DNA of 63,710 bases, the filler included, from Kipferlia bialata (lineage: Eukaryota), in the NCBI GenBank assembly GCA_003568945.1. It is 6 parts of 4 records of this genome, joined end to end, with 100 filler letters (N's around TTAATTAATTAA, not from the genome) between each part and the next. Parts side by side here need not be neighbours in the genome. Positions count along the whole stretch, not along the records: positions 1 to 17,534 come from BDIP01000013.1; positions 17,635 to 29,239 come from BDIP01000013.1; positions 29,340 to 50,202 come from BDIP01000015.1; 3 more parts are not named here. One strand, given 5' to 3'. The translations under genes were made by a program, and so were the position numbers. The first letter of the stretch is position 1. The number at the start of each line of letters is the position of its first letter. A model generated the notes under the pieces. The model did no database searches and was not told the origin of the DNA. It was given only the letters and a program-made list of their open reading frames with translations. This document shows positions 3,350 through 45,292 of the stretch, piece after piece.

Positions 3350-5174
3350 ATGTCTTTCCGTGAGGTTGAGTACTGCCCCCTGTGCGGCGTCCCCTTTGAG
3401 TACTGCGGCATCAACGGCAGCCGCAAGGCCGCCGAGGCCTGCAAGGCGTGGCTCCAGGTCAGTATATATATAGATATACATTTAGATATACTGGTACTGA
3501 TACCAGGCCAACCGCCCCGAGCTCTTCACCCTCATCCACAACGAGGAGGCAGACGCAGCCGTCAACCCCCTGCCCACCACAGAGACCGCACCCCAGAAGG
3601 CCAAGCAGCTCGCGGTGAGTGGTGTATACATTGATAGCAACTAACGTTGTGTCGACACAGATATGCCCTATTCTATATGTATGTTCTACTACAGAAGGCC
3701 AAGCAGCTCGCGGTGAGTGTTGGATGGGTGTATACTGATGGCAGTATATATGCTCACATACGTTGTGTCGATACAGATATGGCCATCTAATCAGTTCTCC
3801 TGTTCATCTTGTCCTCACCCAGGTCCCCCCCTTCGGATGCCCCAGGAACCCCGCCAAGCACTACGACGCATGTGTCCAGGTATTGTATATTACAGTATAT
3901 ACTATGGTATTCCATGGTATCATCACATCTCTATGTCTCGCTATTATGTATACAGCCCCCCTCACGCCAGGTCAGGATCGCCCAGGGATGCGGCCGCAAG
4001 CAGTTCACCCAGATCGACGGATACGACCTCTTCCCCCAGATTGAGGTGAGGGGACACCTTGTACCATGATACACATCTCTCGGACTGTGTATCTATATGT
4101 GTGTGTTGTGTCTCTCTCTCATACCAAGAAGCTAGTCAAGCAGTTCAGGCACCGTGTCCCATCTCTCTCACTATATATATATATATATGTATATGTATTC
4201 GTGTCTCTTATATCTGATACTGATACTCCAGGCCAAGAAGCTTGTCAAGCAGTTCAGGCACCAGTGATATTGTCTGTCAATCTATATGTCCCATATCCCT
4301 CTCACCATATCTCTGTATATATGAATATGTATACATATATATGTTTCTCTCTCACCCCCAGGCCAAGAAGCTTGTCAAGCAGTTCAGGCACCGTGTCCCA
4401 TCTCTCTCTCACTATATATATGTATATATATATATATATATGTATGTGTGTGAGTGTGTCTCTCTCTCATCCCCAGGCCAAGAAGCTTGTCAAGCAGTTC
4501 AGGCACCGCTTTGCCTGTGGTGTGGCCGAGACTGAGCTGTACTCCGGCGGCATGGTCATTGAGATGCAGGGGTGAGTGGGTATACTCTAGTGATTGATAT
4601 ATACTCTAGTGATTGAGATGCAGGGGTGAGTGCTTACCTACTCTCTCTCTCTCTGTACACACTACCAGTATATTATACTCCATCTCTCTGTAAATGTACA
4701 TACTCTGGCGGCATGGTCATTGAGATGCAGGGGTGAGTGGATGGTGTGTGTATCCTTTGGTATAGTCTCTTGTGTTGTGAGGTTATGCTGTTGGAGCAGT
4801 TACCTCTCCCTCCCCTCCCTCCCCTCCCTCCCCTTTCCCAGTGCCACGGTAAATCAATGAGTTCAAGACAGTCACACTACTATCCCTCTCTCTCTCTCTC
4901 TCGCTCTATCAATATATACTAGTGTATCCCTTACGCCCCAGTGCGTATGTCAACGAGTGCAAGGCCATCATGCTGGAGCTAGGCATCCCCAAGGAGCTGG
5001 TGCTGGACGCTGCACCGGTATGTGTACTGTCTCCCTCTCTCTCTCTTGCTCTCTCTTACCCTCAATGGCAAGTGAATATATATGGAGATAGATAGATACT
5101 CACCCCAGGGCAAGAAGGGCGGCAGGAAGAAGGGCCCCAAGCGCATTGAGAAGAGGGTCATCGGGGTCAAGTAG
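3350..5174 (+). CDS. DENR: Density-regulated protein / Tma22 (Zn-binding N-terminus + SUI1 domain), 7 exons
   Basis: Spliced translation MSFREVEYCPLCGVPFEYCG...CKAWLQ...VRIAQGCGRKQFTQIDGYDLF...AKKLVKQFRHRFACGVA...VIEMQG. Exons about 3350-3457, 3507-3614, 3823-3879, 3971-4045, 4477-4571, 4942-5017, 5109-5174 (TAG). Confidence 0.85.
4120..4740 (+). repeat. Intronic direct repeats of DENR exon 5 ends (exon echoes)
   Basis: CCAAGAAGCTWGTCAAGCAGTTCAGGCACC at about 4124, 4233, 4363 and in the real exon 4477. ATTGAGATGCAGGGGTGAGTG at about 4558 (real), 4612, 4719. Confidence 0.9.
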
Positions 5175-5365
5175 ATGAAGAGTCAATAGACACCCGTCAG
5201 TGTATGTTTGTACAGTATACACACGCACACTTTATTATCTTACACTTCAACCGAATGACGAAGGACACTGGGTAGATCCAGATAGATGGATACACTCCCT
5301 TCTCTCTCTCTCTCTCTCTCTCTTACTGCCTCCTCTCCCTTGCCTCCTCCGCCACGGGTGACACA

Positions 5366-5398
<33 letters not shown>

Positions 5399-5399
<1 letters not shown>

Positions 5400-7030
5400 T
5401 ACTGCCTCCTCTCCCTTGCCTCCTCTGCCACGGGTGACACAGGCACAGGGGTATCCAAGGGGGAGAGAGAGGCAGAGGCAGAGGCAGAGGGACTGGACTT
5501 GATGGGAGTGGTCTCAAGGGCCACGATGGGCACACATCTACACAGTGAGAGGAGAATATACTATAGTCAAATTACAATATACTCCAGAACCCCACCTTGT
5601 GTGCTGCCACGAGAGCGGGTCTGACCCGTCCTTCCCAGCCACTATACACCCCACCCTGGTCAGGAACCAGTCAGCGGTGAACCTGATGGATGAGGCTATA
5701 CATAATGAATGAATATATGAATACAGTGAAAACGCATATACCAACCCATCTGTACTCTATGGTGTCCCAGACACACAGACTGTATAGTATATAGTGTATC
5801 TCATAAATACTGAGTATACTAGTAATTATATTTGAGGGTTAGTTACTCCCACCTGTACTCTATGGTGTCGAGACAGACTGACAGTATAGTATTTGATATA
5901 ACTACATATATACCACACAGAGCGCATCCTACCAACCATCTATGAAGAATGAAAGCATAATATACCTGTACTCTATGGTGTCGAGACAGACTGACAGCAC
6001 CAGCCATGCACCCAGGGTTAGGACAGCCCTGAGTACAATGGCCAGAGAGTCACGGCTGTTCATCCAGCCTGACTGTGAGTGGTCTGTATATAAATACCAC
6101 TCTATATACCACTCTATACATATATGTGTACTACATACCAATGATGTATCTCATCCATGAACCGTAGTGGGTATATACATATATATACATACAGATATAT
6201 AGATATACATGTGTACACAAACATGTACATACACATCCATACCTATGATGTTCTCATCCATGAACCGTAGTGGGTATGAGACCGGTCCATCCACACAGAA
6301 CTCAAGGGCAAAGACAGACAGGGACATGGTGCTGAACCTTTATATAAGGTATATGTATATAGAATGGGTGGTCGGTCATCAGTATACTGATACATATATA
6401 TAGATATAGATATAGACTCAAGGGCAAACACAGACAGGGACATGGTGCTGAACCTACGGGTAAGACCATACCTACATATAAATATAGAAACACATGCCTA
6501 CAGGAGTAGACGAATGCCTGGGTGTGGTATACATGGTTTACATATATATACATATACATTATATCTTATATATATACATACACAGACTCCAGAGGTCACC
6601 CCACCTCCTGACCCAGAGCGTTGCTCTTGTCCTGTTGACCGCTGTCTGTCTGTCTGTCCTCTCAAAGAGGTATATGAACCAGGTCAGCATCAGGGTCTCC
6701 AGGCTAGACAGCAGGTAGTACTGGGGGACGCTCATGAAGTTGAAGGCAAGGTCCACAGGGACCTATCAGAGTTAGACGACATATACAAGAATGATGACAA
6801 ATCTATATATACTTCTTAATAAGGGAATCTATCCAATATATACATAGTATATAGATATGAGGACGCTCATGAAGTTGAAGGCAAGGTCAACAGGAACCTA
6901 GTATTGGAAGGTGATTGTAGGAAACGTGAATAACAGCAATGCGCACGTCACATATGTAGAGATAGATACTCATGTGCACCTCCTGGTCTACCACATGTAT
7001 ATGCATAATGTATATACATAATGTGCATCA

Positions 7031-7076
<46 letters not shown>

Positions 7077-10000
7077 TAGAGACTCATGCGCACCTCCTGG
7101 TCTGCCACGTCTGGAGATGTGTAACACTGAATATAAATCCATATGTATATAAATACATATATATGCGCATGTGCGCACCTCCTGGTCTGCCACGTCTGGT
7201 GATGTGACCAGCATGTCCAGTCCATAGTAGACAGTGGTGATGACAGCCATGACGGCATAGGGTATGGCACTCCACCACAATAGAGATAGGACACGGGCAC
7301 TGGAGGGGGACTCGAGGGGGGGGGAGGCAGACTGAGGGGTAAGGGTATATATATACATATATATATATGAGAGTGTCTATACATATAAGCATGTTATACA
7401 TATCACTGGAGGGAGACTCGAGGGGGGGGGGGAGGCAGACTGATGATGAGTGTATAGTTAAATGTATACATGTGTGTGTGAATAGGAAAGTGGTATCCCC
7501 ACCTCCACGTTGTCCCCATCCACAGGCACAGCACCAGAGGCAGGGGTAGCTGCCACTGCTGTCTCCCCTCGTGTGTCTGCACAGTGTCTAAGTACAACAC
7601 CCACAGCAACACCCTACAGTCAGTACTACATGCATCAATACAGTATCAGTATCATCAGCATCAGTGTCTATAGTAGATGTATATGACACGATAGCATACC
7701 ATACCTGGAGGATGCTGCCGAAGAAGGGGAAGACACCAACTAGCCAGCCACTGGAGTCAGCATATGAAGGAAATATCCACAACCATTGATAGACACAGAG
7801 ACGTATGTTCATGGCAACCACCCCTGATCATTCAAGCAATACAGTATCAGATCAAGCATATATCCTATCCCCTGTACCTGAGTGCGTGTGGCCACAGGAG
7901 TGAGTAGTACCCCATCCTAGTAGTGTCTATGGATGTGTCCCTAGTTGTTGCATACTCGTATCTAGTCCACCCCCTGTATCTCCTGACCCACTCTCTGACA
8001 GGCTCAGTGAACAAGGGTATCACTAGGGACAGGGTGTAGAAGGCACCGGCTAGCACCAGTGATGTCCTGAGTGCTGAGACACCCTTGGGCGCCACCCTCC
8101 TTATGACAGAGAGGCAGAGGGGGACAACCAAGGCTAGGACTAGCACTAACAGGGGGAAGGCAATGGCGAAGAAGGAGAGGGGGTTGGACTCAACCTGGCC
8201 CATCTGGTACCACCTGGGGGGAAGTGAGGGGATACAAAATATAACATATTGTGAGTGTATATAGAGCAAGTAGACATAGAGAGAGAGACAGAGTATGTAC
8301 CTGTAGAGCCAGAACACCTCGTTGTCTGGTATGCACTGGTACCACACACCCCTCAGCCACTGCTGCACAGCTGGGGGTGAGACATATGTCATACAGAGAG
8401 AGTAATACAATACAAGAGATCTCACTATGACGATAGATAACATTAATGACATAGATCAATGTAGCCCCGCAGCCACTGCTGCACAGCTGGGGGTGGGGTG
8501 AGACAAAGGTATGCATGTCGTTGCACAATATGAATGCAAGAGACTTTGATACTGTTAACTATCATTCAAGTATCCTACCTACGAGTCCCAACATGATGAC
8601 CATGCTGGTCACATATATGCGAGTGTATACACGCTGTTGCCCTATAAGTATATGTCAGAGATATAAGTAATGCATACTACCACTTCATTACCTACCAGTC
8701 CAAAGAGGATGACCATGCTGGACACATTGTAAGCAGTATATATTGGAGTCCAACATAGTGTGTACTAATACCTATAGCAGCCTGCCCTACCTACCAGTCC
8801 AAAGAGGATGACCATGCTGGACACGTATCTGGCAAAGAGGGAGATACAGTATGCCCTGTATCTAGCAGCCCCCTTGCTGAGTTGCTTGACTGCATTGGCG
8901 ACCTGCACATAGCCGAAGACAGTACCAGAGACCTGGATGTTAGCTTAGATGGTATGTATACTGAGGGTATATACACTATTGATGAGGGACATCGCCAAAC
9001 TCTGTGCAGAGACCTAGAGTCAGTATAAGATAGGTGTATACATTTGTGATGAGATAGAGAGAGGCTATATACAATGGACAGAGCCAAACACAGTGCCAGA
9101 GACCTAGATGTGAGAAGGTATTGACATATATGAATATACTGAGGCAACTGCTTCACAATGAAGAATAGAAACACGGACAAAGGTAGTTCCAGAGATCTTG
9201 TGATGAAATGAGTTATCTCTCTCTCATATGCAGAGGCATACACTCATGTGACCCACCTGGATGAAGAACCCCCTCCACCCACTGAATATGACTGTGGGAA
9301 TGAAGAGAAGGATGGTCAACTTCTTGGCCAGGGTGTCCATCTCCTGGGGTGTGAGAGGGGAGGAGACACGTATTGTATATATACGAATTAGTGTATGTAG
9401 AGACACGTATATGTATACTACTGGACAAATGTTCATCTCAGGCGGAATGAGCATTGAAGAGAACGTGAGAGAGGCATGGTGATATTATTATTCAGATGCA
9501 CCCACCAGGTACCAGTGTGTGTCTGCCGACCCCCCCGTGGTATGGGCAAAGAGCATGCCCAGGATGGCCAGACCACGGGCAAAGTCCCTAGGATGAGTAA
9601 ACATATAGATATAGAGGGTACATACTTTAAGCAAGTTCAGAACTTGCCCAGAGCTCTGTATATGAATATATATCTTTGTATCTAGTCAATCAGATCATCG
9701 CCATACACACATTGACTAACCGTTGAGAATACAGTATAATATAGTGTCACTTCCGCCTCACATCGAGACCAGCCTCTTGTATCAGTAGTGGTATCAGTAT
9801 CTAATACTATACCCCATAATCACATCGAGACTTGGACCATAGCCGTACAGGTATAGGTATAGAGCAATCAAACATTATAGATACAGTGTCACATCGACCT
9901 ATTGATATGGTTATAGTTATATATGGTTACAACTATATTGCTGCACATCCGACTCACATCGAGACCTCTCTGTATCAGTAGTGGCATGAGTATCTAATAC

Positions 10001-10232
10001 ACTATATACTCACATCGAGACCAGCCTCTTGGGCCCATGTGCCTGGGGGGGAGGGAACACTAGGGCATGGATGTCATGCAGCACCTTGCCCAGGGGGGAA
10101 GCACTGCGTAAGGGTGAATCCAAATTATGCATAGAGAGAGATGGCGGGGGGGGGGGGGGGGGAAAGGGGGGGGGGGGGGGGGGGAGGGGGGGGGGGATAT
10201 TGAGTAGGAGAGACAGAGGATACTCACATCAT
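5399..10232 (-). CDS. Multi-pass membrane acyltransferase, HGSNAT catalytic-domain / DUF1624-like, many exons
   Basis: ATG at 10232. Micro-exons (10228-10232, 10085-10103, 10014-10042) splice to MIASPLGKAHGPKRLVSMDFARGLAILGMLFAH, the RLxSxDxxRGxAIxxM motif, followed by many hydrophobic TM exons. Ends ...EEARERRQ TAA at 5399. Confidence 0.7.
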
Positions 10233-10628: not shown

Positions 10629-13600
10629 ATGGGCGACTACGCCGCTGTCCTGTATGCCGATCTGCTGGAGGGGATAGAGGCCCCGCCCTTCTACAATGTG
10701 ACAGGGACATACCCTGGCCTGAGTGTAGCTGAAGGTATTTCAAACACATATACCATCTCTTGATACGTATCCATGTGTATGGCGGTTAGTGGGACCCCCC
10801 TGGTGTATGTGAGAGTTGGTATGTGGTGCAATGCATGAGTTAACCCAGAAGTTGAGTCAACTTCGTTGACACAGCAGATGAGACGCTGACCACCTGCTGT
10901 ATAGTATTGTAAAGTGTTGTATATATAGCATAGCGTATGACTCTATATTCTCCCTGTTCTATGTATTATTATGGCACACTATCATGTATGTACCTCTTTG
11001 GTATGTGTCCGTGTGTATAGCATACCTAGTGAATAGTACAGTACTCCCTATAGTCCCCCACCCCAGGCGAGACCCTCCCCACCCTGTTGAAGTGTGAGTG
11101 CTGCGGCCGTGTCTCCCTACAGTCCATTGTGTGCTACCCCTGTGGATGCACCCTGTGCAGGATGTGCCTGGAGGATGCAGCCCAGACAGAGACACCAGGC
11201 CCCCCCAACTCATACCCCCCCTGCCCCTTGTGCAAGGAGCCCATAGAGAGGATAGGGGTGGACCAGCAGCTCAGCAACCAGGTAGGGAGTGTATCTATCT
11301 TTGTATAGATGTATATACATATGGAGAGAGAGAGGATAGGGGTGGACCAGCAGCTCATTAACCAGGTATAGTATACTTTTCTACATGTAGACAGATAGAT
11401 ATATATGCATATACATATGGAGGGAGCATGGAGGGAGAATGGGAATGGGAATGGAGCAGCAGCTCAGTAACCAGGTAGGGAGTGTGTATATATGTGTATA
11501 CGATGGTAGAGAGAGAGAGAGACCAGCTCAGTAGCTTGGCAGGGGACTGTATGTATCATAGGGACCTATATACAATGCCTTTCGTTGTCTCAGCTTTCAC
11601 TCTCTCTCTCTCTCATCCCCAGGTTCAGCGCATAGTGTTCAGATGCCCCCACAACACACCCTCTCGTCCAGATGCATGTGACTGGAGGTAGGGGAATATG
11701 TGTATTGAGTTTGTCACTTTTAGGTGGTAGGGCTAGTCTATTGTATCCATTGTGTGGACACATATATGCATATGTATCTGCTGTGTATCAAGTGCTGTGT
11801 AGTATGCCCCCAGGGGCTATGCCGCGGAATTGAATAGTAATCAGTTATGTATATTATATATTCATGTATATATACATTTATAATATTAATTTTATATCAC
11901 AGTCCATGTAACTGTCTACCCCCTCACCGCCAGGGGCTATGCCGAGTAAGTGACTCAGTAATACTGTATATATGTGTGTCTATACGTCTACCCCCCCACC
12001 CCCAGGGGCTATGCCGAGGGTGTGACTCAGTAATACTGTATATATGTGTGTCTATATGTGTATACCCCCTCACCGCCAGGGGCTATGCCGAGGGTGTCAC
12101 AGCCCATGCCAAGCACTGCCCATACGCCATGAGCACAAACCCATTCCAGGTATGTATATACACTGTTATGCCTGGTCTGTATATTTGTCTGCTTACACAC
12201 AGGGTCTCAAGAGGTCTCTCTCTCTCTGTATGTGAATCTCTCTACACCCGTACTCATTGCCAGGGTCTCAAGCGGTCTCTAGTCAGTGCCGTCTCCCGCT
12301 CCTCCCTTGTCTCCAAGTCCCCTTCCCTAGTCAGTGTACAGAAGCCAGCACCGGCTCTACCAGCCCCGAGGAGCACTAGGTATAGTACATAGATACGTGT
12401 ATTCCTTAGCTATGTACCTCGTATGTATCTGACCCCAGGACCTCCCCCTCTGTCTCCATAGGGCGTCGGCCCCCACCCCCCATACCCCCCTCCAGGAGTG
12501 TCAGGCCATCGGTCAGACCCAGTCCCACCCCTGCTACTAGGCACACACCTGCACCTGTGCATGCACAGCCAGGAGAGACTGTGGGTCAGACACGGTGAGT
12601 GGATGTGCATGTGGATAATAGAATACATGATGTATTTGCATACATATATACATATCCCCTCACCCCCAGCGTGCAGTGCCCCCACTGTCAGGGTATGTAC
12701 CCTGTGCTGTCACTGTCGGCACACGCGTCAACATGTAAAGGTACCGCATGGGTTATATATTTCATAGTCCTTGGATCTGTACTGACACCTAGGTGCCCAG
12801 CACTCCTGCTCCGTCCTATCAACACCTTACCCCTATATATTGTTTTCTGTATATAGGTACACAGTCCTAACCCTAACAGGTGCTCAGCACTCCTGCCCCG
12901 TGCCGGGTTGTGTAAATAGAGTGGGAGGGGGCGAGGCAGCGTGGCTGTCCCACCTCACCGACAGGGGGCATGATGGACATGACTCACCCCTGGCACAGCA
13001 CATGGCGGCATTGATGGTGCAGGTATGTATATGTAGATGTAATATTACATACCCTTCCACTGTTAGTAGGGATTGGTTCTCGACATTACCACCACAGACA
13101 CCCATTGCTAACTGCAGGTCGAGGGCATTGGCCGGGATGGAGTGGACCTTGGGGATGAGAGAGGCCTGGTGCGAAGGGTGGCATACCTAGAGGGGGAGAG
13201 AGAGAGGATGGAGAGAGAGACCAGTGCACTCAGAGAGGAGGTACAAACTCTACTGTACATGCATGTATTCTTTAGTATACTGTATATACATATATATAGG
13301 TGTCTGACCCTCCCAGGTAGCTTCTCTGCGTGAGACTGTGTCCCAGCTGTCTGCCTTAGTGTCAGTATCATGTGACACACCCTCTACCATGAGGAGGGGG
13401 TCATCGTCATCGGGGATAGGGATAGGGGAGAGGGAGAGAGAGGGGAGGAGAGGGTCATCGGGTAGATCTAGGAGGGGATCGACAGACGGTAGGGGGGAGA
13501 GGGAGAGTGGCCGTGTTGGGAGAGAGAGGGCCATGAGTCGGGGAGAGGGCTCTGGAGACCTACCCCACCCGCGTACCCTGAGCACGTCTCTCTCGAAGAG

Positions 13601-15454
13601 AAGTCTCGGACATGGGAGGGAGAGAGAGAGGGAGAGAGAGAGGGAGAGGGAGAGAGACATGCTGGGAGAGAGTAGCACCCCCGGCCCCCCTGACCACTCT
13701 CTGTCGTCTCTCTCCCCCTCCCCCTCCCTCTCTGCCCTTCGGTCTCAGGCATCGACAGCCCATGGGGGTAGCAGCAAGATGACCCCCCTGAGGAGAAGGG
13801 GCTCTCTGCAGTCTGTGCTGAGTGCGTTCTCCAACCTACAGAACAAGGGGAAGGGCAAGCACCACAACAACTACCTGGCCCAGGGCATATCAGACAGTGA
13901 CAGTGAGGACAGTGGGGGAGAGGACTATGTGTCATCAATGCTCAGGCATGGGCCCCTGCGGCACTCAAAGAGGTATGGGGCATGTGTGTGGACATGTTGA
14001 TACCTACTCTTACTATTCTATGAGTATATATGATATATACACTCTTCTGTGGTTGTGTCTATCGACTGAGGCACTCAAAGATGTTCCTTGTGCTTTACAC
14101 ATTGGTCTTCTCCAGTATATGTAGTAATTGCACTATTAGTGCTATTAGTAGTATTCTTTCCAACCGTAGGTCTGTGACAGTCAGTGTGTCCCCTCCCACT
14201 GGGGAGAGGGGTCTGAGACCCGAGGACCAGGCAGAGAGGCTGAGGCAGCACATGAAGGAGCAGACGCAGAAGCAGGTGTGTATGAAGACTGATCTAGAGA
14301 GGGACAGTGAAGATAGAGTCGTCCTTACCCCCCAGGTCGATGTTCTGTTCCCCGGCATTGTCAAGACCGTGCCCTCTGTCAACAGTGCCCTGTGCCACTC
14401 GGTGTTTGTATTGCATGACGGCAGGTAAGTATTCACTGATATATATATTAATGTGATGCTTACATATATATATATATAGTGCCCTGTGCCACTCGGTGTT
14501 TGTGCTGTATGACGGGAGGTATGTGTATACATACACATTGTATATTTAGACATGATTACATATAGAAGTATGTATATGTATGTATGTGTTTGTGACGCAT
14601 GACGGGGGGGAGGTACATAGATATGTGATAGTAACTGCGTAAGTCACCGCCAGACCCATGTCTATATATCTCTATATGAGTGTATGATACCCACCGCAGG
14701 TCCCATATCTCCAGCCCACATCCATATCTATATATGCTCTTTCACTTGAACCCACCCCCAGGTCCCGTGTCTCTAGACAGGCTGTTGTTAAGGGCTGGAG
14801 GGGCTGCTATGGGAAGAGACCCTGGGTCACAGGCTCATACTACTTCGAGGTGGGGGAGTATTGGTGCCTGTCTCTCTACATGTGTATTCACTGACCACAG
14901 GGTCCTCTCTCTTCCTGTCTCTCTTGTATATATTCACATATTCACCCCCTCACCCCCAGGTCCTTGTTGAGGAGATGTCCTCCCCCTCCGTGGCCATTGG
15001 CGTGGCTAACCCAGACAAGGTATGGGCATACAAGTTTTATAGTAGATTCACAAAGCACACACACATAGGTATATATGTACAAGTATTGAAATGCACACCA
15101 ACCCCCAGGCCGACCCGACCGACCCCCTGGCAGGCAGAGACGCATGGCTCTTCACTGCAGCACCTCCCTGTAGGTATGATGTGTGACTCATGTATATACT
15201 TTTAATGCTCCCTCCCCCCCCCTCCTGACCCCAGGGTGAATGGTGGTAGGTGGCTGGACTATGGGCACAAGTGGGAGCAAGGTGACCACATCGGAGTGGC
15301 GGTGGATGTGTCAGAGGGGAGGCTGGAGTTCTACCTCAACGGCCAGCCCCAGGGTGTGGCCTTCACCTCGTGCTGCCCCCCCCTTGTCCCTGTCATAGCC
15401 ACTGGGTACGGCACATACACACTCCAGTTCCTGCCATCCAGCGAGATGAAGTGA
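10629..15454 (+). CDS. RING finger + TRAF-type zinc fingers + low-complexity linker + C-terminal SPRY/B30.2 domain (probable E3 ligase)
   Basis: CECCGRVSLQSIVCYPCGCTLCRMCL...CPLCK (RING), FRCPHN...CDWRG...HAKHCPY (TRAF-type Zn finger), YGHKWEQGDHIGVAVDVSEGRLEFYLNGQPQGVAF (SPRY). TGA at 15454. Confidence 0.75.
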
Positions 15455-17478: not shown

Positions 17479-17525
<47 letters not shown>

Positions 17526-29339: not shown

Positions 29340-29393
<54 letters not shown>

Positions 29394-29402
29394 TACCCCC
29401 AG

Positions 29403-32400: not shown

Positions 32401-33394
32401 AAGGCATGTCCTGTGGGACCTGCCCCCTGTGCGGTGGCTGGAGGACAAGGCGGTGCTCTTCATGTGCAGGAGAATGGGGACCCCGATGCCTTTGGTACGC
32501 AGATGTATATGTATTTGTGAATATACGTTGTCTGATAAGAGTATCACCCACCCCTGACCACCCAGGTGTTTGTGTGCCTGGTCCTGCCCTTCTGCCCCCA
32601 CCTGATAGGCAGTGTGGCAGCTGGGAGTGGGTGGGCCAAGCCGGGCATAGCGGCACTGGGTGATGCCGAGTATGCACCCCTGGGCGTGACATACTTCCTG
32701 GGGTGTCTGGTGTACATGCTGGCCATCTTCCCTATCGACTCATACTCCCTAATCAGTGGCAGGTTCCTTCTAGCCACTCCCCCTGACCTCTGGCTGTCAT
32801 CCAGGGCAGAGCAGGTGAGTAGTGTATGTATACATATGTAGTCTAGTATACTAGTAGAGACTGGCTCTGACCCCCCAGGTGTCTGACATTCTGTTCCCAA
32901 GGGGAAGGTTCACATCCACCTTCCCAGAGGCTATGGATCGAGAGAGGAGGAGGGAGAGACCCAGGCCCATCGACGTCAGGCAACACATATCAGCAGAGCC
33001 AGAGAGAGAGAGGAAGACGCACAGCCGCAAGGGCTCCTCCGTGGCCACCTCCTTTGACAGGAGTGACGCTGCGTCAGAGACGGACGGGGCATCGGCCAAT
33101 GCACTGCTCAGACCCACCCGGACAGAGGACGAGCTCATGGTGACACCCAACCCCACCCTGGCATCGGTCAAGAGCCAGTGGGTGAGGTATCGCAAGCTGT
33201 CTCCGTCCAGGATTTCTAGGGAGTTTATCGGGGTGGTGCACATATTCATTGCCCTCCTGGGGTGTGTCATGCTGTGTGTGGAGTCAGAGAGCAGTGCTGG
33301 CACACAGGGGCTCCTCATATCCCCTATTGCGCTACCCCTCACCCTCCTCCTCGCCCTATCAGTTGTGGGTAGGGTCAGGTCGGGCAGGCAGTGA
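29403..33394 (+). CDS. TMEM62: TMEM62-like protein (metallophosphoesterase-fold domain + Ig-like region + C-terminal TM helices), 5' incomplete
   Basis: FLPLISPDAVLVSGDLTDG, WSEY...LDVRGALD, ILGVDNSPYPG, LHIRVLVHSSDHISSVEYGLDG follow the TMEM62 motif order. Multiple C-terminal TM segments. TGA 33394. Confidence 0.7.
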
Positions 33395-33721: not shown

Positions 33722-35373
33722 ATGCAGTATGGCGATCCAGACCAGTACGCTGAGTCTGTACAAGGGCATCCTGACCTGGCGTTGAGCCAGACCCAGTTTG
33801 AGGACGTAGAGGAGCCCGTAGAGGAGCCCAGTGCTGTCACAGGGGATGTTGTGCTTTCAGGTCCATGTGAGAAGCTCACCAAGGGGCTTATCAGCAAGTG
33901 GAGGCCCAAGTGGCTGATTCTGACTGCCGATGCTCTGTTTGTGTGCCCCCTGCTGGAGAACTGCCCAGAGCTCAAGCCCAACGAGGCCCTGGCCAAGGCA
34001 ATTGCTCTCTCTCCTGAGCACACAGCCACTGAGGTTGTTGCCGCTGGGCACAAGCTGACCAAGCAGCGCACACACATTATGCAGCTGTCTGTGGAGGGTA
34101 CCAAGACCTGGTTCAGCTTTGCCACTGCCATTGAGGTGCAGGACTGGACAGACGCAGTGGTCAGGAGACACGAGAGTGTGGTGGTGAGGCCCCCAGGATC
34201 TGCAATGGCCCTGTCTAAGCTCTCACAGCTGGCAGAATACGGAGCAGGTATGTATCAGTGTGTATTGTTTGTACTGGCTTGTGATTGTGTGTTGCTTCTT
34301 AGCACCTGTAAGAGATATTGCAGTTAGAACACGTCCTCTTTACGCCAACGTGGGAGAATGCTGTGTATTACCCCCCCCCCCCCCTTTCTCTCTTACCCCC
34401 CTAACATGCAGGCCGTGCCCCGAGTGACGGCGTGATGGTGATGAGACCATACGGGCTGAACGAGGAGGGCAACCCAGTGGAGAACGAGACCCCCATCAGA
34501 GATCCCGAGGCAGAGGGTGCTATATCCGAAGGGGGGGAGACCGCCTATGACTTCAACGAGCAGTACCAGGCCTATGTGGATGAGTGGGCCGCCCTGCCCC
34601 CCAACCTGTCTGATCAGGAGCTGGCACAGCGCACCATGGAGCTCAGCACAGGTGGGGTGGTACTTGTATGGGTATTGATACTCCTACGGTGTATGATTAT
34701 TTCCATACTGTATGGAACCACTTGTACATGTTTCTGATAGTCACTGGGGGCTTGGTATACTCATCCGCCCTTGTGGACTTTGCTGGTCTCTCTCTCTCTC
34801 TCTCTCTCTCTCCCCTTCTCCCCCCTCTACATATCTAGCCTCACTCCCAGGCATGGCCCGTGTGATGCGTCAGTTTGCGGCCTTCTGCACCCTGCGTGCC
34901 CGGCTGATAGTGGACGAGATGTCTCTGAGGCCGGACGAGGCCTCCACCCCGGCTGTTGTGCCTGAGGGGGAGGAGCCCGGCCCCACATACTGGCCCGACA
35001 CCTGGGCCTGCGATGGAGTGCTGTACAGAGTGGCCCAGGGGGATGTCAACACCACCCTGGCTGCCCACCCCCTTGACCCATATGCTCAGCAGCAGGGGAT
35101 GGGGATGGGGATGGACCCCAACATGGGAGGCATGGGAGGGATGGGAGGGATGCCTGGTGGGGGGTACGATCCCTTCAACCAGGGCTTCAACAACCCCTTC
35201 CCCGGCATGGGTGATGGGGCAGAGGACCCCGACGCTGTGGACGGGGCTGCCCAGGCTGAGAAGGACACGGTGCCCATGCAGATTGCCATGCACGAGCTGG
35301 GGGGAGTGAGTGCATACCTCTCTGCCCATGTGGAGGGCCTGCACCCACCCCTCATGTGTCTGGTGGACCACAG
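33722..35373 (+). CDS. PH domain + Clu domain protein, 3' part missing
   Basis: SGPCEKLTKGLISKWRPKWLILT...EVQDWTDAV (PH). DFNEQYQ...F...ARLIVDE...DGVLYRVA...IAMHELGGVSAY...LHPPLMCLVDHR (Clu-type motifs). Confidence 0.65.
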
Positions 35374-35442
35374 GTATTGGTTGTACATGATACATGCATA
35401 TATAAGCAGTCACTTGTGTGTATATCAGGATGATATCATCCC

Positions 35443-35489
<47 letters not shown>

Positions 35490-35630: not shown

Positions 35631-38600
35631 TCCTCCAAGTACAAGACCATGTACGACAGGCGTCTCAGGAGTCTCCAGTTCTCAGACAGGTAAGCGTGTC
35701 ATATATATTGTTTATAATGGAATTTCATATGTATATATTGTGTGTGTATTGAACTATTCTTATTGGTGTTAGTTTGGAACCTGCTCAGGTATATAATACA
35801 TTAGTGATGTATAGTATGTACCTTACCCCAGGCTGACCAGGCTCCTTGGGTCAGGGTATGTGCAATACATTTATAGTATGCATATACATATGTATATATA
35901 CACATATGCAAATGGGTATATACTCACCCCAGGCTGACCAGGCTCCTTGGGTCAGGGTATATATATATGTGTATTTGTAAGTACACAACTAGATGATATT
36001 CAATTTCTATCGTCCCCACCACCAGGCTGACTAGGCTCCTGGGGTCAGGGTATGTGGAGTACATGGGGGAGGACACACGGTGGGGGGGGAAGCAGCTCAT
36101 CACAAGGGGGAGGTACAGACAGTGATACACACTCGTATATATATATGTGTGTATGTATGTATATATATATATATATATATATATAGGGGAAGCAGCTCAT
36201 CACAATGGGGAGGTACAGATGCTGATACACACTCGTATATGTATATATGTATGTATATATTTATATATACACATAGGAGAAGCAGCTCATCACACGGGGG
36301 AGGTGGGGCCGATATGTAGTGAGTCACACTGCTCAGATTATGGGTGTATAATCCTTTTGTCTATCCCTCTCACCCTAGTGAGGACTTTGGCCCTGTCAAG
36401 CACTGTGGGGAGAAGATACTTGCAGAGAGGTGAGCTGTAGTGAATCAATAGTATTCAACTTCCTGTCTCTCTCTCCTTCAATCTAAGTCACCCCACCCTG
36501 ATCCGTTCTCTGCAGTACATGCACTTTGATACATCTACTTGTACCTTAGATATGTACACATACACTCCTTGACCCCAGTCTGATCCAGTCTCTGGAGTGC
36601 ATGGTCTTACATATGTGTTAATTACTATAACTATTGCATCTGTATATTTGTATATATATACTGACCCCAGCCTCATCCAGTCCCTGGAGTGCATGCAGGA
36701 TGCAGACATGGGCACAGAGGACGCAAAGGGTATGAATAGTTTTAATAGTGTTTTATATGTATATTTATAGTACTAATCACATATATATGGTTGTTATTGT
36801 AATATATATGAGTGGCACAGAAGACGCATAGGGTTTGTTTGTATAGTGACAATATATATAGTACTCATTTGTTACGGTATGTATTCATTCACAGTGGTAC
36901 CCTCAGCCCTCACACTCATTATTGCAGGCTGCTCTGACCATTGTTACTATGTGTGTGTTTGTATGTGTATATATTCATACTTACCCCCCAGACTCCTTCC
37001 ATGCCAGGAGGGATGCCCTAGCTAAGTGGGCCAGGGGGAGGTTCCAGACAGAGAAGGCAGAGGTATATATGAATATATATATTCATATATATACACATAG
37101 ATATGTACATTTACTTGGTAATAGTATATATATGGGGGAGGTTCCAGACAGAGAAGGCAGAGGTACACTTACATAGTATATACTATGTAACGCAGATAAT
37201 AGGTACATGCACTACTGCACATACCTCACCCAGGTTCAGGCTGACAATAATGCTGATATGTATACATATATCAAGGGTGTATTCTGTATGCAATATCCCC
37301 ATGCTCATGACCCAGGTTGAGGCCGACGAGCACATCGCTGCTGCCATGGCCTCTGACACCCATACCCTGTGCATCAGCAACGACACAGACATGATACTCG
37401 GGAAGGTATGTGTCTGTCTCTCTAACACGATTCATATTGGGACCATATATATCTCTCTACACGTCAACCCATGGTGTCTTCACTACCATACCTCCCACAA
37501 TATATGTTACAATGTATATAATAATATACTTTATATATGATATATACTATACATGGTTCTCCTCACATCCAGAACTCCCGTGTGTGCCGTGTGGACGATG
37601 TCATCAAGGCCTTTGCATGTGGCACAGAGATACCCGTGTACACATCCAAGTACCTGTCACAGAGGGTGCTGGGGTGCAGGGAGGTACGGTAGTAATAGGA
37701 CATATTGCATCAATCACTATAGTGGACCTCCTCTCTTTACTTTCGTCATTCACCCTAGGACATGCTCCCCATTGTGTCCTGGGCATGCTTCAACGACACA
37801 ACCTCGGTACGGTGTATGGATACTACATACATATATGCACATCAGAGAGAGACCTTCCCCCTACCACTATCCTTCCAATGACACGTGTACATTATACATG
37901 AGTCCAGAGAGTACTTGTCCCCCCTCCCACCACAGCACATGCGCCCCCTTCTCTCTGCCTTCTGGACTGAGTACGACACGGTGTCAGCCACCCACCCAAT
38001 TGAGGGTGTGAGAGAGAGGGGACCCGACCAGCGTAGGGTGACTGCTCGCACCGGGCCCAACAGGGGAAGTGCAGGGTGGGGTGCCAACAGGGGTACTGGG
38101 CAGACACATGCCAGGCAGAGAGGGGGAGCCAACGATAGGAGAGGCGGGTACGGGGGTGGGATGAACAGGCAGCAGCAGCAGCCAAACAACCACTTCAGGT
38201 ACAGTACAGTATGTGGTATATGGTATGGTACAATGTGATTCATATCCGTGGTGTGTCTCACACTCTCACTGTAGGTCCACCCCCACCCTCACTGGAGGGA
38301 GGATGCTGCTGGCCAGTCTATACCCAGCTGGGGATCAGGTATGCATGGACATGTACAGGCACATATATCAACACGATTCATGAGTACTGCCTATCGATAT
38401 TGAGCGAATGAAAGGAGTATGTGTGTCTACTTTAGTGAATGTACCCTCTATTCCCATGCCCCTGCTCTACTCACCCCTAGGTCGGCAGGGACCACAGGGT
38501 GGGAGAGCGCCACATGGCAGTCGGGAAGTACGTACCACATTTAGAGCGTTCTATATCCTATACCCTTTCATGAATATATTGTTGGGGATAATTCCTCTAT

Positions 38601-39821
38601 AGTCTCCCTGTCACCTCTCTACCGCTTACATATGTATTATTGCTCTGTATGTAGTGTGCAGTCTCAACACCACATGCACCACATGCACCGCATATACATC
38701 TGATTATGTATACATATTATATGTATTGAATTTTTTTTGTTATATATGTATTACTCCATATACATTGTCACTCACCCCCCCAGGTGGTGCAGCCTCAACA
38801 CCACATGCACCCAGGCCAACCACCCCTTTGTGAGGGTGCTCGCAGAGGACAGGTTCAGGAGGTACTTGGCCTGCTATCACGTGTGTCACACACAAAACCA
38901 TACCTTGTTTCTCTCTCCGATATTTAGTGTATTGGTATTACTTCTCAGAGGACAGGTTCAGAAGGCATTGATATCCACACACCTCCTTCTTGCAGCTGTA
39001 GACAATTCGGAAGGGTGTAAAGTGAGGTGTATCTATTTCTCTCATTCCAACCCCAGCCTTGCCGTTGCCCTTGTCTGCACATACAGAGACCTGCAGTACC
39101 CTTTGCCAGAGACACTAGTGCAGTACCTGCCAGCAGATGAGGTGGCCCCTACAGTACCCACTCCCTCTGTGGAGGAGGAGAGAGAGGACGGTGGGACCCT
39201 GTCCCTTCTGCCACCCACAGCTGACACGGCACAGGAACACGAGGTATACAACTCCTAACACATGCTGATATATGCAGTCTAAGGACCGTTGCTATTGGAT
39301 ACTTCTCACCTTAGGCTGCCTGCTTGGCCTTTGGTGTCAGTGCTGCAGCTAAGGGAGAGACACACGTCCCAGACGTCAGCATGGCACACAAGGAACAGGT
39401 ATATATATATCTATCATGACTTACAAGAGTCGTGTATGTAATTTTATGTATTTAACAATATGGCACACAAGGAACAGGTATAGTCGCAGTAATCCCCATA
39501 TATATCCAAATGTAACTAACTTTCGCTTTTCACCTTGCCCCTCACCCCAGCACACCCTGCTGGCACAAGCCCTGGCTGACTGTGAGTGCGGCATAGCATC
39601 CACCATGGACACGAGGTATGTATGCATACATATATATATGTGTATATTGGAGATGGTATCCATATTGTAGGTGATATGTATATGAGTACATAGAGTTTAG
39701 GTCATAGCTCACCCCAGGGGCTTCAGGTCCAAGTATGTATATAAGTGATAAGTATATGCATTGGTTCAACTAACCCCAGGGGCTTCATGTCCAAGTATAT
39801 GATATATGATAGGTGATATAC

Positions 39822-39852
<31 letters not shown>

Positions 39853-42612
39853 ACTCACACCCCAGGGGCTTCATGTCCCGGTTCATCCAGACGGTGTATC
39901 ACAAGCCAGAGGGATACGGAGGGAGGTATGTGGGATCACCTGTGATGGAGGAGTCTTCTCAGTCTACTAATACTCTGCCAACTTGCTCTCCCCCCAGACC
40001 CGTACCCCAGTTCAACATCGGCACATCTCTGCTCAGTGCAGTAACAAGGTGGGGTGCTGTAACTATATATACTACCAGAGTAGTAGTAATAGGTAGTTAG
40101 TTCTTCTGAGTACCGCAACTAGGTAGGATGTCTGTTACCTACATATTGAAAGAGAGTATTGGTTTCTCTTTAAGTAGTCTCAGCCAATGAGTCTCCATCT
40201 CACACCAGGTCTCTGCTCTCCCCTGAGGGTGGTGCTGGATACATCACGGGTCTACTTCCTGTACCTACAGCAGAGGCACAATCACTCATAGGAGACAGGG
40301 TATGTGAGGATTAGGATGCTTCATAGGTTGTCTCACACTCAGTTGAACCAATCAGACTCTCAGTCTCCCTAACCCCAGGTCGTTGTCCCCTTCTCCCTCC
40401 TCAAGTGGAGGGACATGGACCTCAGCCAGACCAGGGAGGCCCAAAGTGCGTGTAGCATATATGAGTGGTATATAGACATATGGGACAGTTACATGTATGG
40501 CTACATGCTCCTTACCCCCAGCCTTCTCTGCCCTTGGGTACAAGACCATGGACGTCCCATTCAGACTCAAGTATGTGTCATATGGCATGTATCATATATA
40601 GTTTGTAGGGTCTCTGCCTTATTTGCCCTCCTGTGCCTCTGATGCCCATGCATCCATATGTTAAATAGACTGTACAGTATCATGCACTACATATAATACT
40701 TCCTTCCAACCAATTATATATATGTAGTTCCTCTCTTCCTCACTGAGGAATCCTCACCCCCAGTGTGTCTGCTGCCCATGCTGCCATGAGTACAATTCAT
40801 TCATATACTGATACATATCAATGTATATGTATATCAATGTAGTATTATGTACAAGTATTGATTCTCTTCCTTACCCCAAGTGTGTCAGCTGCCCATGCTG
40901 CAGTATATATACCTCTATTACACCATTCACTATCTCTCATATATATAATGACTCACCCCAGTGTCTCAGCTGCCCATACCGCCATGCAGAGTGGGGCACA
41001 GGAGGAGGAGATACTGGCTGCACTCTTTGCAGGTACCACTGACACACTAGAACACCCATACATATACATATGTACACATTAATGTATATAGTACCGTCCT
41101 TAGAGGAGGAGATACTGGCAGCACTCTTTGCAGGTAACATTTACATGTATAAACATTACTAGTATACAATGGATATATGGATATATATGAATGGTACCAT
41201 CCTTAGAGGAGGAGATTCTGGCAGCAATCTTCGCAGGTATATATATGTGTGTGTATACCAGTCACTCCTCATATCTCATACACTATATGTGTATGTGTAG
41301 AACCAACCTTCTGTTTAACCCAGGCGTGCCAGGCTACCCCGAGTCCACCCTCACCACCTATGGTGGGAGTGCACCTACAGCAGACGTGGTAGAGGCTGTA
41401 GCACCACGCACCACTGGCAGGTACATACCCCCTTCCCAGAGGCGTCCCCCTGCCAGGGTGAGGGCACCAGTCCCTGAGCCTGTCATAGAGTATAGAGACA
41501 GTGTGGAACTGACAATGTCCTGGTTCCAGTTGGTGCTGCACCCATTCAGAGAGAGCATTGACACAGGTACTAGTGTATTCTGGGCTTTGTTTCATCCATA
41601 TAGTAGTGTATATGTGTGTCAATTGTGGTCTATACTGCTCTCACCCCCCAGACACCATCCGCCGTGTAGTATGTGCCTGCATGCCCTGGGTATCCGAGGA
41701 TAGGGCACCCACCTACAGCGAGGTCCAAGTGTCCCTGGTCACCAGGACAGCCCTGCTGACATATGCATACATTGCCCACCTGCTCAATGCCATGGGTACG
41801 GACACCTGATATGAGGTCACTATTAGATGTTTAGAATGCATCTTCCTGTATCTCACTGTTAGGCATGCCCCTCTCTGAGCTTGACCTGTCTCTCCTCGGC
41901 CTACTCCTGGACAGACACCTATCATCAGACCAGACAGCATACCAGAGAGGGGAAGGTACTCTCAATGCCACTTCTCAACAATACCCCATATAGAAGTCTT
42001 CTCAGCTATCAACATGCATTGATGCATATTTCCCTCTCACCCCAGTAGCCTCCACCTCTGCCCCTACCCCTGCCCTGGGAGATGGATGGGCCACCACAGG
42101 CCAGAGGGGTACCCCAGGTAGCACCGGTGGCATTGCCTCCTCCACCTTCATGTGGGCCAGTGTGCTTAGGGAGGGCAGTCCCGCCCCACCCAAGCCCCCC
42201 TCTGTATACACCCACCCCTGTGAGGGCACCGGCCCTGCCTGCCTGTACGGGTACATCAAGGAGGTGGCAGATAGGGTCGGGGTGGCCCACGAGTGCTGTG
42301 GGATGAGACCAGGTATAATACTAGTGTATATACACACACTATTTGTGTTATACTCTTTGGTTCTAACTAATCTCAGGCACCCCCACCTAATGTCTGATGG
42401 ACAATACACTATACACAACTATACATAGAGAATGCATTGTACATAATACATGTAGCTAATGTGTAGGTACCCCCACGTGGTGTCTGATGGACGGCGAGAT
42501 GTTCCTTCACACCGTGGCACAGGCCAGGAGGGGGGAGACACCCTCCTCCAAGGTACGGGGTCTGATGGAGGTGTTCCCTAAGGCAGGGGACAGGGGGAGT
42601 GTGTTCCTGTAG
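35631..42612 (+). CDS. FAM120/asteroid-like protein with FEN/XPG-type PIN domain and RGG-rich insert, 5' incomplete
   Basis: VEADEHIAAAMASDTHTLCISNDTDMIL (EAD...SxDxD PIN motif), RGG/NRG-rich exon about 37908-38197, C-terminal ECCG..P..PTWCLMDGEMFLH as in FAM120. TAG 42612. Confidence 0.6.
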
Positions 42613-42921
42613 AGTGGACTGTCCACTTGGAGTGGGACTCAGTATCAGTATCAGTGTCGGTATATGGTGTACAGTATACTCTATACTACTGCATAGACAG
42701 ACCGAGTCTCATTGCACGTAGAGGTATCCATGTTTTCGGGAGGTGGTTGTTGATATATAGAGAGAGTGATAGAGAGGAGTGATGAGAGAGGGGAAATAGA
42801 TAAGTGTTCTGACAAGTTTGCCTTGGTTCCAATACTTAGTGAAAAACACTATGTGATTACTGGCCTAGTAGTACTAGGCCTAGTATTTGAAAATGTATGA
42901 TTAGCAGTAAACCCTCCATGT

Positions 42922-43410: not shown

Positions 43411-43505
43411 TGGGATAAGGTGGAAGGGTATGTATTCAAGAAGACAGTAATACAAGAGAATAATTGGTATAGAGGGGCAGATATGAGGGGGTCGTTTAGG
43501 TGGGG

Positions 43506-43537
<32 letters not shown>

Positions 43538-43852
43538 AAAAANNNNNNNNNNNNNNNNNNNNNNNNNNNNNNNNNNNNNNNNNNNNNNNNNNNNNNNNNN
43601 NNNNNNNNNNNNNNNNNNNNNNNNNNNNNNNNNNNNNNNNNNNNNNNNNNNNNNNNNNNNNNNNNNNNNNNNNNNNNNNNNNNNNNNNNNNNNNNNNNNN
43701 NNNNNNNNNNNNNNNNNNNNNNNNNNNNNNNNNNNNNNNNNNNNNNNGTGTTCGAGGATCCTTTTTCCCCCCCCCCCCCCCCCTCTCCCTCCCCTCACTC
43801 ATGGACATGTCTCTCGCTCTCTCGCTCTCTCTCTCTCTCTCTCTTACATCAG

Positions 43853-44502
43853 GATGGCGTTGGCTGTGATGCCTATGACCATGTCATCACCCTGGAGCTT
43901 CCCCTCTTCGGACTCACAGGGTATGTCTTATATATATATTTATATATATAGAGAGAGAGAGAGGGATAGGGAGAGAGGGCTAGGTGGGTGACTGTCGGTC
44001 TATTTCATACCCCCTTCTCCTACCTTCTCTCACTCTAGCAAGCTGCCCAATGAGATTGGCTGCCTGCCCTACCTGGAGTCCCTCATCCTCGAGAACAACT
44101 CCATGGTATGTCATATGTATACATGTGCATATATACATATGTATACCATGTATAGTGTATATACCTACCTCGAGTCCCTCATCCTCGAGAACAACTCCAT
44201 GGTGAGTATATATATCTCTCTCTCTCTCTTTCTCTCTGTGTGTGTATGTGTTTCTTACACCCAGGTCACCCTCCTCCCCGCCAACATCTCTCTCTCTCTC
44301 TCTCTCTCTCTTACCACTAGGTCACCCTCCTCCCCGCCAACATCTGCTCCCTCGACAACCTGTCCAACCTCATCCTCAACAGGGCATTCATCGTGGGACC
44401 CCTCCCAGGTATATATGTATATATAGTGTATAGTGTATAGAGAGAGAGAGAGAAATAGACACTCATCCTCAACAGGGCATTCATCGTGGGACCCCTCCCA
44501 GG

Positions 44503-44538
<36 letters not shown>

Positions 44539-45292
44539 GATATGTGCACATCTCCCCCCTCCCTCCCCCCTCAAGTCCCTCACCCCCAGACTGCATAGTC
44601 GATCCTCTCTCTCTCTCTCTCTCACACACACCCCAGATATCAGACTGCATCTGCGACATGCCCTCTCTCTCTCTCCCTCTCTCTATATATTCATATGTAT
44701 CTAACCTCCAGACTGCATCTGCGACATGCCTTCCCTGGCCCAGTTCCACATGTCCGGCAACTTCATGAACTCCCCCCTCCCCGAGTGCATGGGCAACAAC
44801 TCAGGTACCAGATACCCCACCCCAACTGCTATACCCTAGTGCCCGAGTTCGACTCCCTATGTATCCACTCTTCTCACCCCTCAGCTCTCGACTCCTTCCG
44901 TGCTGACTGCTCCTACCTCCAGGGCGAGGTCCCCACCGCCATGTACGCCTCTGGCCACCTTGAGGAGCTCTACGTACGTCTCTCTCTCTCTCTCTCTCTC
45001 TCCATCTCTCTCTATATATGTCCCTCACCCCCAGGTCCGTTGCAACTTCGACCTCACCTGCCCCCCCGAGAACGAGTGGAGTCCCAACACCATGGTGCTC
45101 TGTGGGACTGAGGTGAGTAGGGTTAGTATAGTGTGGGGTATATATACAATGAGTGCAGTGTGGGATGTGGAGAGTGTTGACAGTGATATGTATACATGCT
45201 ACTCTATACCTAACCCTTTCAGGACTGTGACGAGGAGTGCTCTGACGTCGACCCCATCGGATGCTCCCCCGTCATCGACATCGCTGGATGCG
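43853..45292 (+). CDS. Extracellular-type leucine-rich repeat protein (LRRNT_2 cap, LxGxLP repeats), fragment; paralog of 56822 gene
   Basis: GVGCDAYDHVITLELPLFGLTGKLPNEIGCLPYLESLILENNSM...LLPANICSLDNLSNLILNRAFIVGPLPDCICDMPSLAQFHMSGNFMNSPLPEC. Confidence 0.75.

Follow-up and report, generated by a model that had tools for sequence, protein, structure and literature searches.

The window, a 64-kb stretch of Kipferlia bialata DNA that is made of contigs joined by N linkers and is the scope of all counts given here, contains genes whose introns carry partial copies of the adjoining exon end, most of them with the splice site attached. We refer to these copies as echoes, donor-type when an exon end with its downstream donor is repeated and acceptor-type when an exon start with its upstream acceptor is repeated. 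Using a small predictor followed by hand curation, we built 14 gene models with 151 exons and 137 introns. Two window exons matched the K. bialata proteins KIPB_000226 and KIPB_000129 at 100%, and the acyltransferase-like model was fully contained, letter for letter, in an annotated 567-aa protein; the 12 models other than this one and DENR are based on open frames and splice signals. Pfam matches were obtained for SUI1, SPRY, RING, BEACH, PH, CLU, and HGSNAT, several of them under the curated cut-off. The labels VOC, FAM120, eEFSec, ARM (armadillo), TMEM62, and SET are presumptive, and some of them were adopted from an earlier reading of this DNA, the original prediction. The echo-bearing genes, two echo-free genes that serve as internal controls, and the echoes at coding ends are as follows.

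3350-5174 (+): DENR/SUI1-domain gene with 7 exons, SUI1 Pfam match weak; donor echoes at 3692-3712, 4609-4625, and 4701-4732, acceptor echoes at 4124-4154, 4232-4262, and 4362-4393
4046-4476 (+): DENR intron with three acceptor echoes sharing one exon end position, at least partly echo-of-echo tandem copies
5301-5444 (-): stop-codon echo, a second copy, in the 3' flank, of the final 46 nt of the acyltransferase-like coding sequence with its TAA; it has one synonymous change and lacks a splice site
5398-10103 (-): HGSNAT-like membrane protein (acyltransferase-like), KIPB_000129, Pfam match weak, model letter for letter within annotated P0121; 13 echoes in 8 of 13 introns, at 5750-5780, 5853-5884, 6141-6174, 6416-6453, 6861-6897, 6980-6994, 7094-7121, 7404-7439, 8465-8486, 8579-8619, 8692-8725, 9075-9103, and 9762-9779 (all -)
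10629-15454 (+): RING-SPRY gene; 9 echoes in 6 of 15 introns, e.g. 11329-11365, 11452-11474, 11934-11946, 12006-12026, and 14478-14518
15799-17400 (+): VOC-like gene (label from the original prediction); 4 echoes in 3 of 5 introns, at 16453-16471, 16707-16737, 16969-17005, and 17124-17146
17951-20472 (+): armadillo-like gene (presumptive label); echoes in 0 of 12 introns, internal control
21975-22000 (-): degenerate echo of the eEFSec-like coding-sequence end, about 105 nt beyond the stop codon, score 32
22117-29061 (-): eEFSec-like translational GTPase (label from sequence motifs and the original prediction); 23 echoes in 12 of 21 introns, e.g. 28113-28147, 28215-28267, 28498-28522, 28602-28627, 24822-24870, and 25001-25049 (all -)
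29402-33394 (+): TMEM62-like gene (presumptive label); echoes in 0 of 9 introns, internal control
35631-42552 (+): FAM120/PIN-like gene (label from the original prediction; no Pfam match for the one exon searched); 17 echoes in 12 of 25 introns, e.g. 35832-35870, 35933-35960, 36186-36212, 36276-36302, 40764-40788, 41103-41133, and 41206-41236 (all +)
43853-45292 (+): LRR gene fragment; 4 echoes in 2 of 6 introns, at 44164-44201, 44265-44296, 44462-44501, and 44644-44668
53966-55898 (-): gene placed at 54-55.7 kb in the original prediction; 5 echoes in 3 of 8 introns, at 54479-54503, 54984-54996, 55019-55036, 55118-55140, and 55680-55697

Census and geometry of the echoes

To find echoes we used the exon sequence alone as the query and accepted local alignments to the adjoining exon end with a score of at least 26. 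This cut-off yielded 83 matches; two that lay farther from the junction were discarded, leaving 81 within 6 nt of it, 69 of which end exactly at the exon junction. The original prediction had claimed that flanking introns hold copies of exon ends and had proposed aligning exons against those introns with non-adjacent controls. Run on the 14 gene models, this alignment recovered the copies at the places named, with the adjoining exon end aligned in 49 of the 137 introns, far above the controls. Exon ends reached the cut-off against introns of other genes in 0.09% of 37,082 pairs and against non-adjacent introns of the same gene in 2 of 3,628 pairs, while reverse complements (0/274) and far exon ends (0/123) gave no match. 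The pattern had also been called pervasive, which describes 8 of the 14 models; the other six have none (ARM-like 0/12 introns, TMEM62-like 0/9, SET-like 0/9, second LRR 0/4, PH-CLU 0/2, and short-chain dehydrogenase 0/2), and the echo rate is heterogeneous among genes (P=0.002). Echo genes have shorter exons, and their plain introns are richer in TA (P=1e-4). The GC content is 0.41 in introns and 0.60 in exons, and it is high at third codon positions in genes with and without echoes.

The 81 echoes, 45 donor-type and 36 acceptor-type, are 13-53 nt long and cover at most 72% of their exon. They form 61 arrays with one to three copies per side at this cut-off (42 single, 18 double, and 1 triple), so the multiple copies described originally are present in slightly different numbers and sizes from the one to four copies of 15-55 nt given there. 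The polarity was also as described: in all 12 introns holding both types, donor echoes lie 5' of acceptor echoes. This offers no clue to mechanism, since any local duplication that leaves one whole exon would have the same polarity. The median spacing from junction to junction is 102 nt (quartiles 90-113), and the 78 units shorter than 140 nt consist of an echo of 28 +/- 9 nt and a spacer of 71 +/- 16 nt. The 70-nt spacer resembles the lower end of plain intron lengths, of which the shortest is 49 nt, and its regularity may reflect selection. With a median length of 269 nt in introns with echoes versus 87 nt in those without, and with echo units making up 35% of intron bases, the predicted recurrent duplication or recombination across junctions that lengthens introns is borne out. 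Plain introns of at least 100 nt contained no internal repeat above a score of 24 (0/32).

GT is retained in 40 of 45 donor echoes and AG in 31 of 36 acceptor echoes, so that 10 of 81 sites are lost. Stop codons are echoed at 2 of 11 coding-sequence ends where no splice site is present, and echoes of start codons were absent from the five starts checked. The idea that echoes come with a splice site hence applies to most of them and fails at the stop codons, which implies that the anchor is the coding boundary and not splicing.

Three further observations concern the echoes. Extra short, decayed exon-end copies lie below the score cut-off at 9588-10013 (-), around 9820, 9889, and 9953, and they imply that copy numbers are underestimated. 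Another acceptor-type echo, along with short internal coding repeats, lies at 49812-50078 (-) in a gene outside the 14 models. A recurrent six-base repeat, branch-point-like on one strand, precedes the outer end of several donor echoes (20477-20515, 24293-24328, 25539-25574, and 42640-42660).

Divergence, splice sites and read-derived contigs

When echoes were compared with their exons, differences were found at 58 of 338 fourfold sites and at 45 of 1313 zerofold sites, a ratio of 5.0. A freely decaying self-copy, with the exon taking silent changes alone, is expected to give a ratio of at most 2, from which the observed value departs with P=3e-6. The same excess was seen when only the nearest echo of each of the 61 arrays was counted (41/258 versus 31/995, P=6e-5), and simulated self-copies with neutral decay, passed through the same pipeline, gave a mean ratio of 1.9 and a maximum of 3.3 in 180 runs. 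The bias is strongest in the two RNA-checked genes, at 14/79 fourfold versus 4/331 zerofold. With each change counted once, 76 of 128 are synonymous; at sites under at least two echoes, all 11 exon-private changes are synonymous, as are 20 of the 41 echo-private ones. Base-composition bias was rejected as the cause of the silent excess, since fourfold exceed zerofold differences whichever of the four bases is the reference. Neutral self-copying does not account for the echoes.

Decay within the echoes is modest. Across 2,276 nt of echo we counted five frameshifting indels, of which one is doubtful because it falls where an alignment ends. There were two stops among 49 amino-acid changes, and changes since the echo stopped working amount to about 0.03-0.04 per site. 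The time since then looks short and the decay looks neutral. The nearest echo is more exon-like than farther ones in 14 of 17 untied arrays (P=0.013), which suggests that new material likely arrives beside the exon.

Intact echo splice sites score level with working sites and far above random intronic GT/AG, and the branch motif occurs in 27 of 36 acceptor echoes; real acceptors have it in 119 of 137 cases, and random positions in 25%. The first 6 nt are common to the echo donor and the working donor in only 8 of 45 cases. Two unlike, full-strength sites at one junction imply that each was selected separately. Beyond the splice site, the identity between echo flank and working flank is 0.32, near the background of about 0.28 and far from the 0.85-0.94 predicted for a self-copy without indels. 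Even among the 12 echoes of at least 20 nt with zero differences, 11 are without flank homology. The original statement that the sequence between copies is usually unalignable therefore holds, apart from a minority of ordinary tandem duplicates with alignable intron flanks (gapped homology in 9 of 80 units, 2 expected) and homologous within-intron spacer pairs in 7 of 113 cases; 11913-12097 in the RING-SPRY gene, for instance, is a true 72-nt tandem repeat by Tandem Repeats Finder (TRF). Taken together, the synonymous bias and the intact yet different splice sites, neither of them noted in the original prediction, argue against plain self-copying.

Read-derived contigs cover only 3300-10140, which holds the DENR and acyltransferase-like genes. 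They stem from a public DNA run (X1) and from run X2, which we treated as RNA because its contigs join 14 GT-AG introns of these genes. Of 19 echoes, 11 are spanned by X1 contigs that extend at least 31 letters to either side, with 0 other letters and 0 gaps, and the depth at the bridged echoes (417-498) equals that of echo-free sequence, X1 being possibly the assembly's own source and hence no independent sample. The suspicion that the assembler had stitched haplotypes together was thus allayed at the bridged echoes, while the three copies in the DENR intron 4046-4476 are unbridged by short-read DNA contigs.

In all nine covered echo introns, X2 contigs run from the outermost donor straight to the outermost acceptor (eight by listed joints, one via contiguous record positions); the joints 3614>3823 and 4571>4942, for instance, pass over DENR donor echoes. 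Within the RNA-covered introns, 9 of 15 echoes score at least as high as the site in use, so good splice sites are skipped as predicted, although evidence from contigs drops rare forms, lost five joints at repeats, and is blind to low-level echo use. Choosing the last among several good acceptors would fit recognition across the exon. The discrimination must be sharp, since with 23 echoes in one gene a mis-use of 5% each would leave about 30% correct message.

A second splice site at the outer end of echoes showed no excess, being found in 5 of 45 donor echoes (10.6% of random chimeric junctions) and in 3 of 36 acceptor echoes (6.8%). On this count we rejected echoes as micro-exons or relics of past intron positions, and the earlier suggestion that they seed new introns or alternative exons was not upheld. 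Three echoes do have both acceptor-like and donor-like bounds and are in frame at 39, 24, and 15 nt (23445-23483, -; 35933-35956, +; 39780-39794, +); they are candidate micro-exons, no commoner than the null. In tandem exon duplication or mutually exclusive exons, the whole exon is duplicated with both splice sites. This was rejected for the echoes by their coverage of the exon and by the same null. Recursive splicing uses internal AG|GT sites, an acceptor directly followed by a donor, and was likewise rejected: echoed exons end in AG in 26 of 33 cases versus 83 of 104 others and start with GT in 9 of 28 versus 34 of 109 (both P=1).

Origin of the echoes

We propose, holding the idea about evenly between right and wrong, that an echo is the exon end of the previous allele, displaced when the exon end of a divergent allele plus about 70 nt of its intron was copied in by aborted homologous repair. 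A break would land inside an exon, at most about 55 nt from where it ends, and the broken end would invade the homologue within coding sequence only, because the allelic introns would be too divergent. Synthesis would then run past the exon end and splice site of the donor allele and some way into its intron, and the new strand would be end-joined to the other broken end instead of annealing. The old half-exon, the old splice site, and the old intron would be displaced inward as a result. Survival would require that the spliceosome ignore half-exons, by exon definition or by choice of the first donor and last acceptor, and the displaced echo would afterwards decay neutrally. Repeated events would stack echoes with the newest adjoining the working exon, and a sister chromatid or similar allele as template would give an ordinary tandem duplicate, about 1 in 9. 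The scarcity of intron-only repeats would follow as well, because unrelated allelic introns would leave only exons open to strand invasion.

Aborted synthesis-dependent strand annealing closed by alternative end joining is known from Drosophila at induced breaks. Its combination of templated insertion and duplication is the geometry that we propose for the echoes; a role between divergent alleles at exon ends would be an extension of it. Templated insertions and repair-born duplications are reviewed in PMC7407515. Metamonads are described as being without Ku and nonhomologous end joining (NHEJ), and fornicates as being without Rad51A and using Dmc1 paralogues, so that homologous repair and alternative end joining should dominate (PMC8516963). 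Diploidy of K. bialata has been suggested from k-mer peaks (PMC5874029).

Several results weigh against allele displacement. The silent bias is weaker in the eEFSec-like gene (18/124 versus 21/431, ratio 3.0) and in the VOC-like gene (3/12 versus 5/65), and between echoes it amounts to 11/67 versus 17/265, a ratio of 2.6 that is above 1 and indistinguishable from 2. The lengths of echo and spacer do not correlate (rho -0.01), so that a fixed synthesis tract fails to explain the 100-nt period, and a fixed length of repair tract was rejected. At junctions with echoes, the working acceptors are a little weaker than acceptors elsewhere (P=0.04-0.07), and some of them could therefore be newly made. 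RNA confirms 2 of the 14 gene models and none of the other 12. A second allele was absent from the X1 contigs, which had no other letters and ran as an unbroken 1,163-nt contig of normal depth through a 336-nt exon, and for the one gene checked at the protein level the proteins of at least 196 aa included a single one, clustering with no other. The model also demands, as a premise, that allelic introns be unalignable at a silent divergence of only about 0.10-0.14. Two metagenome scans, in one of which several search patterns spanned introns, gave no other strain and no relative.

If echoes were instead born as self tandem duplicates of about 100 nt, with microsatellite-rich flanks scrambled by slippage and the exon later gaining silent changes by allelic gene conversion, the homologous flanks and spacer pairs, the four arrays that TRF detects, the TA-richer plain introns of echo genes, and the age gradient would all agree. 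Scrambling down to the observed flank identity should nonetheless have wrecked unselected echo sites, yet GT/AG is kept in 71 of 81, scores like working sites, and differs from them in sequence; moreover, the echoes have merely five indels, and long plain introns are without internal repeats. We regard this origin as unlikely, with some weight left to it. The silent bias and the intact sites could also be had without a second allele if echoes were selected as standby exon ends, put into service whenever single-strand annealing of the exon end with the echo mends a break in the TA-rich spacer, damaged echoes being weeded out. The lack of NHEJ in metamonads (PMC8516963) would suit such a role, and amino-acid changes in echoes lean conservative (BLOSUM -0.22 versus -0.58, P=0.065). 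Against it, frameshifts, stops, and lost GT/AG stand near neutral proportions (5 indels to 45 zerofold changes, 2/49 stops, and 10/81 sites lost), the selective benefit would be second-order and tiny, and the DNA contigs list no pop-out joint, although that listing skips repeats. Standby selection therefore seems improbable to us.

Even less credence goes to the idea that template switching or reverse splicing placed an intron start or end at the junction, either taken from another gene or newly made, the copy of the exon end being a target-site duplication. Homology that stops exactly at the junction in 69 of 81 echoes and the slightly weak working acceptors would be expected on this account, and Daphnia alleles can hold non-homologous introns at one site (PMC4202315). 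A copy identical at birth, however, needs a second process for the 5:1 silent bias, and stop-codon echoes without a splice site speak against it; they rule out reverse splicing as the sole cause. An assembly artefact, in which two haplotypes of a diploid were stitched in tandem, would mimic the silent bias, the foreign flanks, and the good splice sites. The assembly is a short-read draft, the organism is possibly diploid, short reads are typically close in length to the period of about 100 nt, and the DENR intron 4046-4476 is unbridged. This account is very hard to credit all the same, as separately assembled contigs of the public run bridge 11 of 19 echoes unchanged at normal depth, though that run may be the assembly source, and as a junction can have up to four versions, with frameshifts and stops unlikely in a live haplotype.

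Extending allele displacement to the genome, we suggest, somewhat short of even confidence, that Kipferlia introns may be a layered archive of displaced alleles. Exon ends and splice sites would be repeatedly overwritten from divergent alleles with the old junctions left behind, amounting to a wholesale turnover of introns at fixed positions that would record past allelic diversity and cryptic sex, while the reduced spliceosome of a fornicate would reject thousands of full-strength decoys in introns of 100-400 nt by recognizing whole exons.

Known systems, significance and neighboring features

The original prediction knew of no description of such a pattern, but two bear on it: exon stuttering on chicken dot chromosomes (Hron et al. 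2026, PMC12954441) and human F7 IVS7 (Borensztajn et al. 2006, PMC1557585). In chicken stuttering, as described in that paper, the lateral part of an exon and its donor or acceptor are copied into the adjacent intron, more than 90% lie within 1 base of the border, their median is 36 bp, and the coding exon stays intact. It affects 190 of 5,572 dot-chromosome introns (3.4%, stricter threshold) with 1-44 copies over a median of 1,751 bp, is GC-rich, and forms imperfect tandems of related copies that are mostly TRF-detectable, with extensive polymorphism of intron length within the species. Inaccurate strand invasion is among the mechanisms suggested by its authors. The K. bialata echoes are alike in that exon-edge copies in the adjoining intron are far above controls, derive from the exon border with the splice site included, and leave the exon intact. 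They are unlike it in that only 4 of 61 arrays are TRF-detectable and few flanks are homologous (9/80), in having one to three copies at a spacing of about 100 nt and a 5:1 silent bias, and in lying in introns of 41% GC, in genes that are TA-richer. The words synonymous, protist, and unicellular are absent from the main text of PMC12954441.

At F7 IVS7, a 37-bp minisatellite extends across the exon 7 border; the downstream pseudo-donors are functional but silent, and the most upstream donor wins (PMC1557585). The K. bialata pseudo-sites are likewise silent, the outermost sites being used in 9/9 RNA-covered echo introns. Whereas F7 is one locus with identical copies and donors only, in K. bialata the sites differ and acceptors are skipped too, the last AG being used. 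Near-identical head-to-tail units of the F7 type were not seen in K. bialata in general (8/45 donors share the first 6 nt), only in a few arrays such as 11913-12097. When intron gain occurs by tandem or segmental duplication, duplication of coding sequence makes a new intron (Hellsten et al. 2011, PMC3265369); here, too, a local duplication of splice signals alters intron structure in one step, but existing introns lengthen and we found no new intron position. Neointrons of Daphnia pulex carry exon-derived direct repeats of 4-12 bp left by break repair (Li et al. 2014, PMC4202315), unlike the half-exons of 13-53 nt with splice sites inside established introns seen here. Nothing in the openly accessible literature searched reports echoes from Kipferlia or from another protist, and the string "duplicat" has 0 occurrences in the genome paper (PMC5874029). 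The layout is thus already known; such density in a single-celled eukaryote, intact sites beside foreign flanks, and the silent bias seem not to have been described before.

The K. bialata genome is reported to hold 124,912 introns (PMC5874029), and its spliceosome to be reduced, with 87 of 174 proteins found and no candidates for small nuclear RNAs (PMC6679479). If the window is typical, a large share of these introns would carry decoys as strong as the real sites, providing a natural, genome-scale test of splice-site choice in a unicellular eukaryote with short introns and a reduced spliceosome. Echoes would also explain how introns grow and how their sequence is replaced while their positions stay conserved, and they would give chicken exon stuttering a microbial counterpart that is tractable. 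We know of no description of sex in this lineage, in which echoes would record allelic exchange. On the practical side, echoes can mislead gene predictors; our simple predictor mistook several of them for micro-exons.

Among neighboring features, the PH and CLU exons (33722-35373, +) head toward the FAM120/PIN-like exons (35631-42552, +) over a poly-C tract at 35440-35487, and may belong to one gene, to two, or to a gene with a missing piece. Two LRR and cysteine-rich surface-type paralogues, at 43853-45292 and 56822-59910 (+), have echoes in 2/6 versus 0/4 introns. The armadillo-like gene has a probable GC-AG intron at 18819-18937 (+), required to hold the frame; GC also starts two donor echoes. 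An intron-bearing short-chain dehydrogenase lies at 50367-51065 (+), its next-best matches (57-68% identity) being mostly unnamed metagenome proteins and the named ones prokaryotic, and a lateral transfer of this gene is possible. Lastly, contig ends (e.g. 17480-17523, 29340-29391, and 53834-53882) are mostly long poly-C/poly-G runs, often beside sequence resembling a 3' splice site, and these runs likely explain the fragmented assembly.

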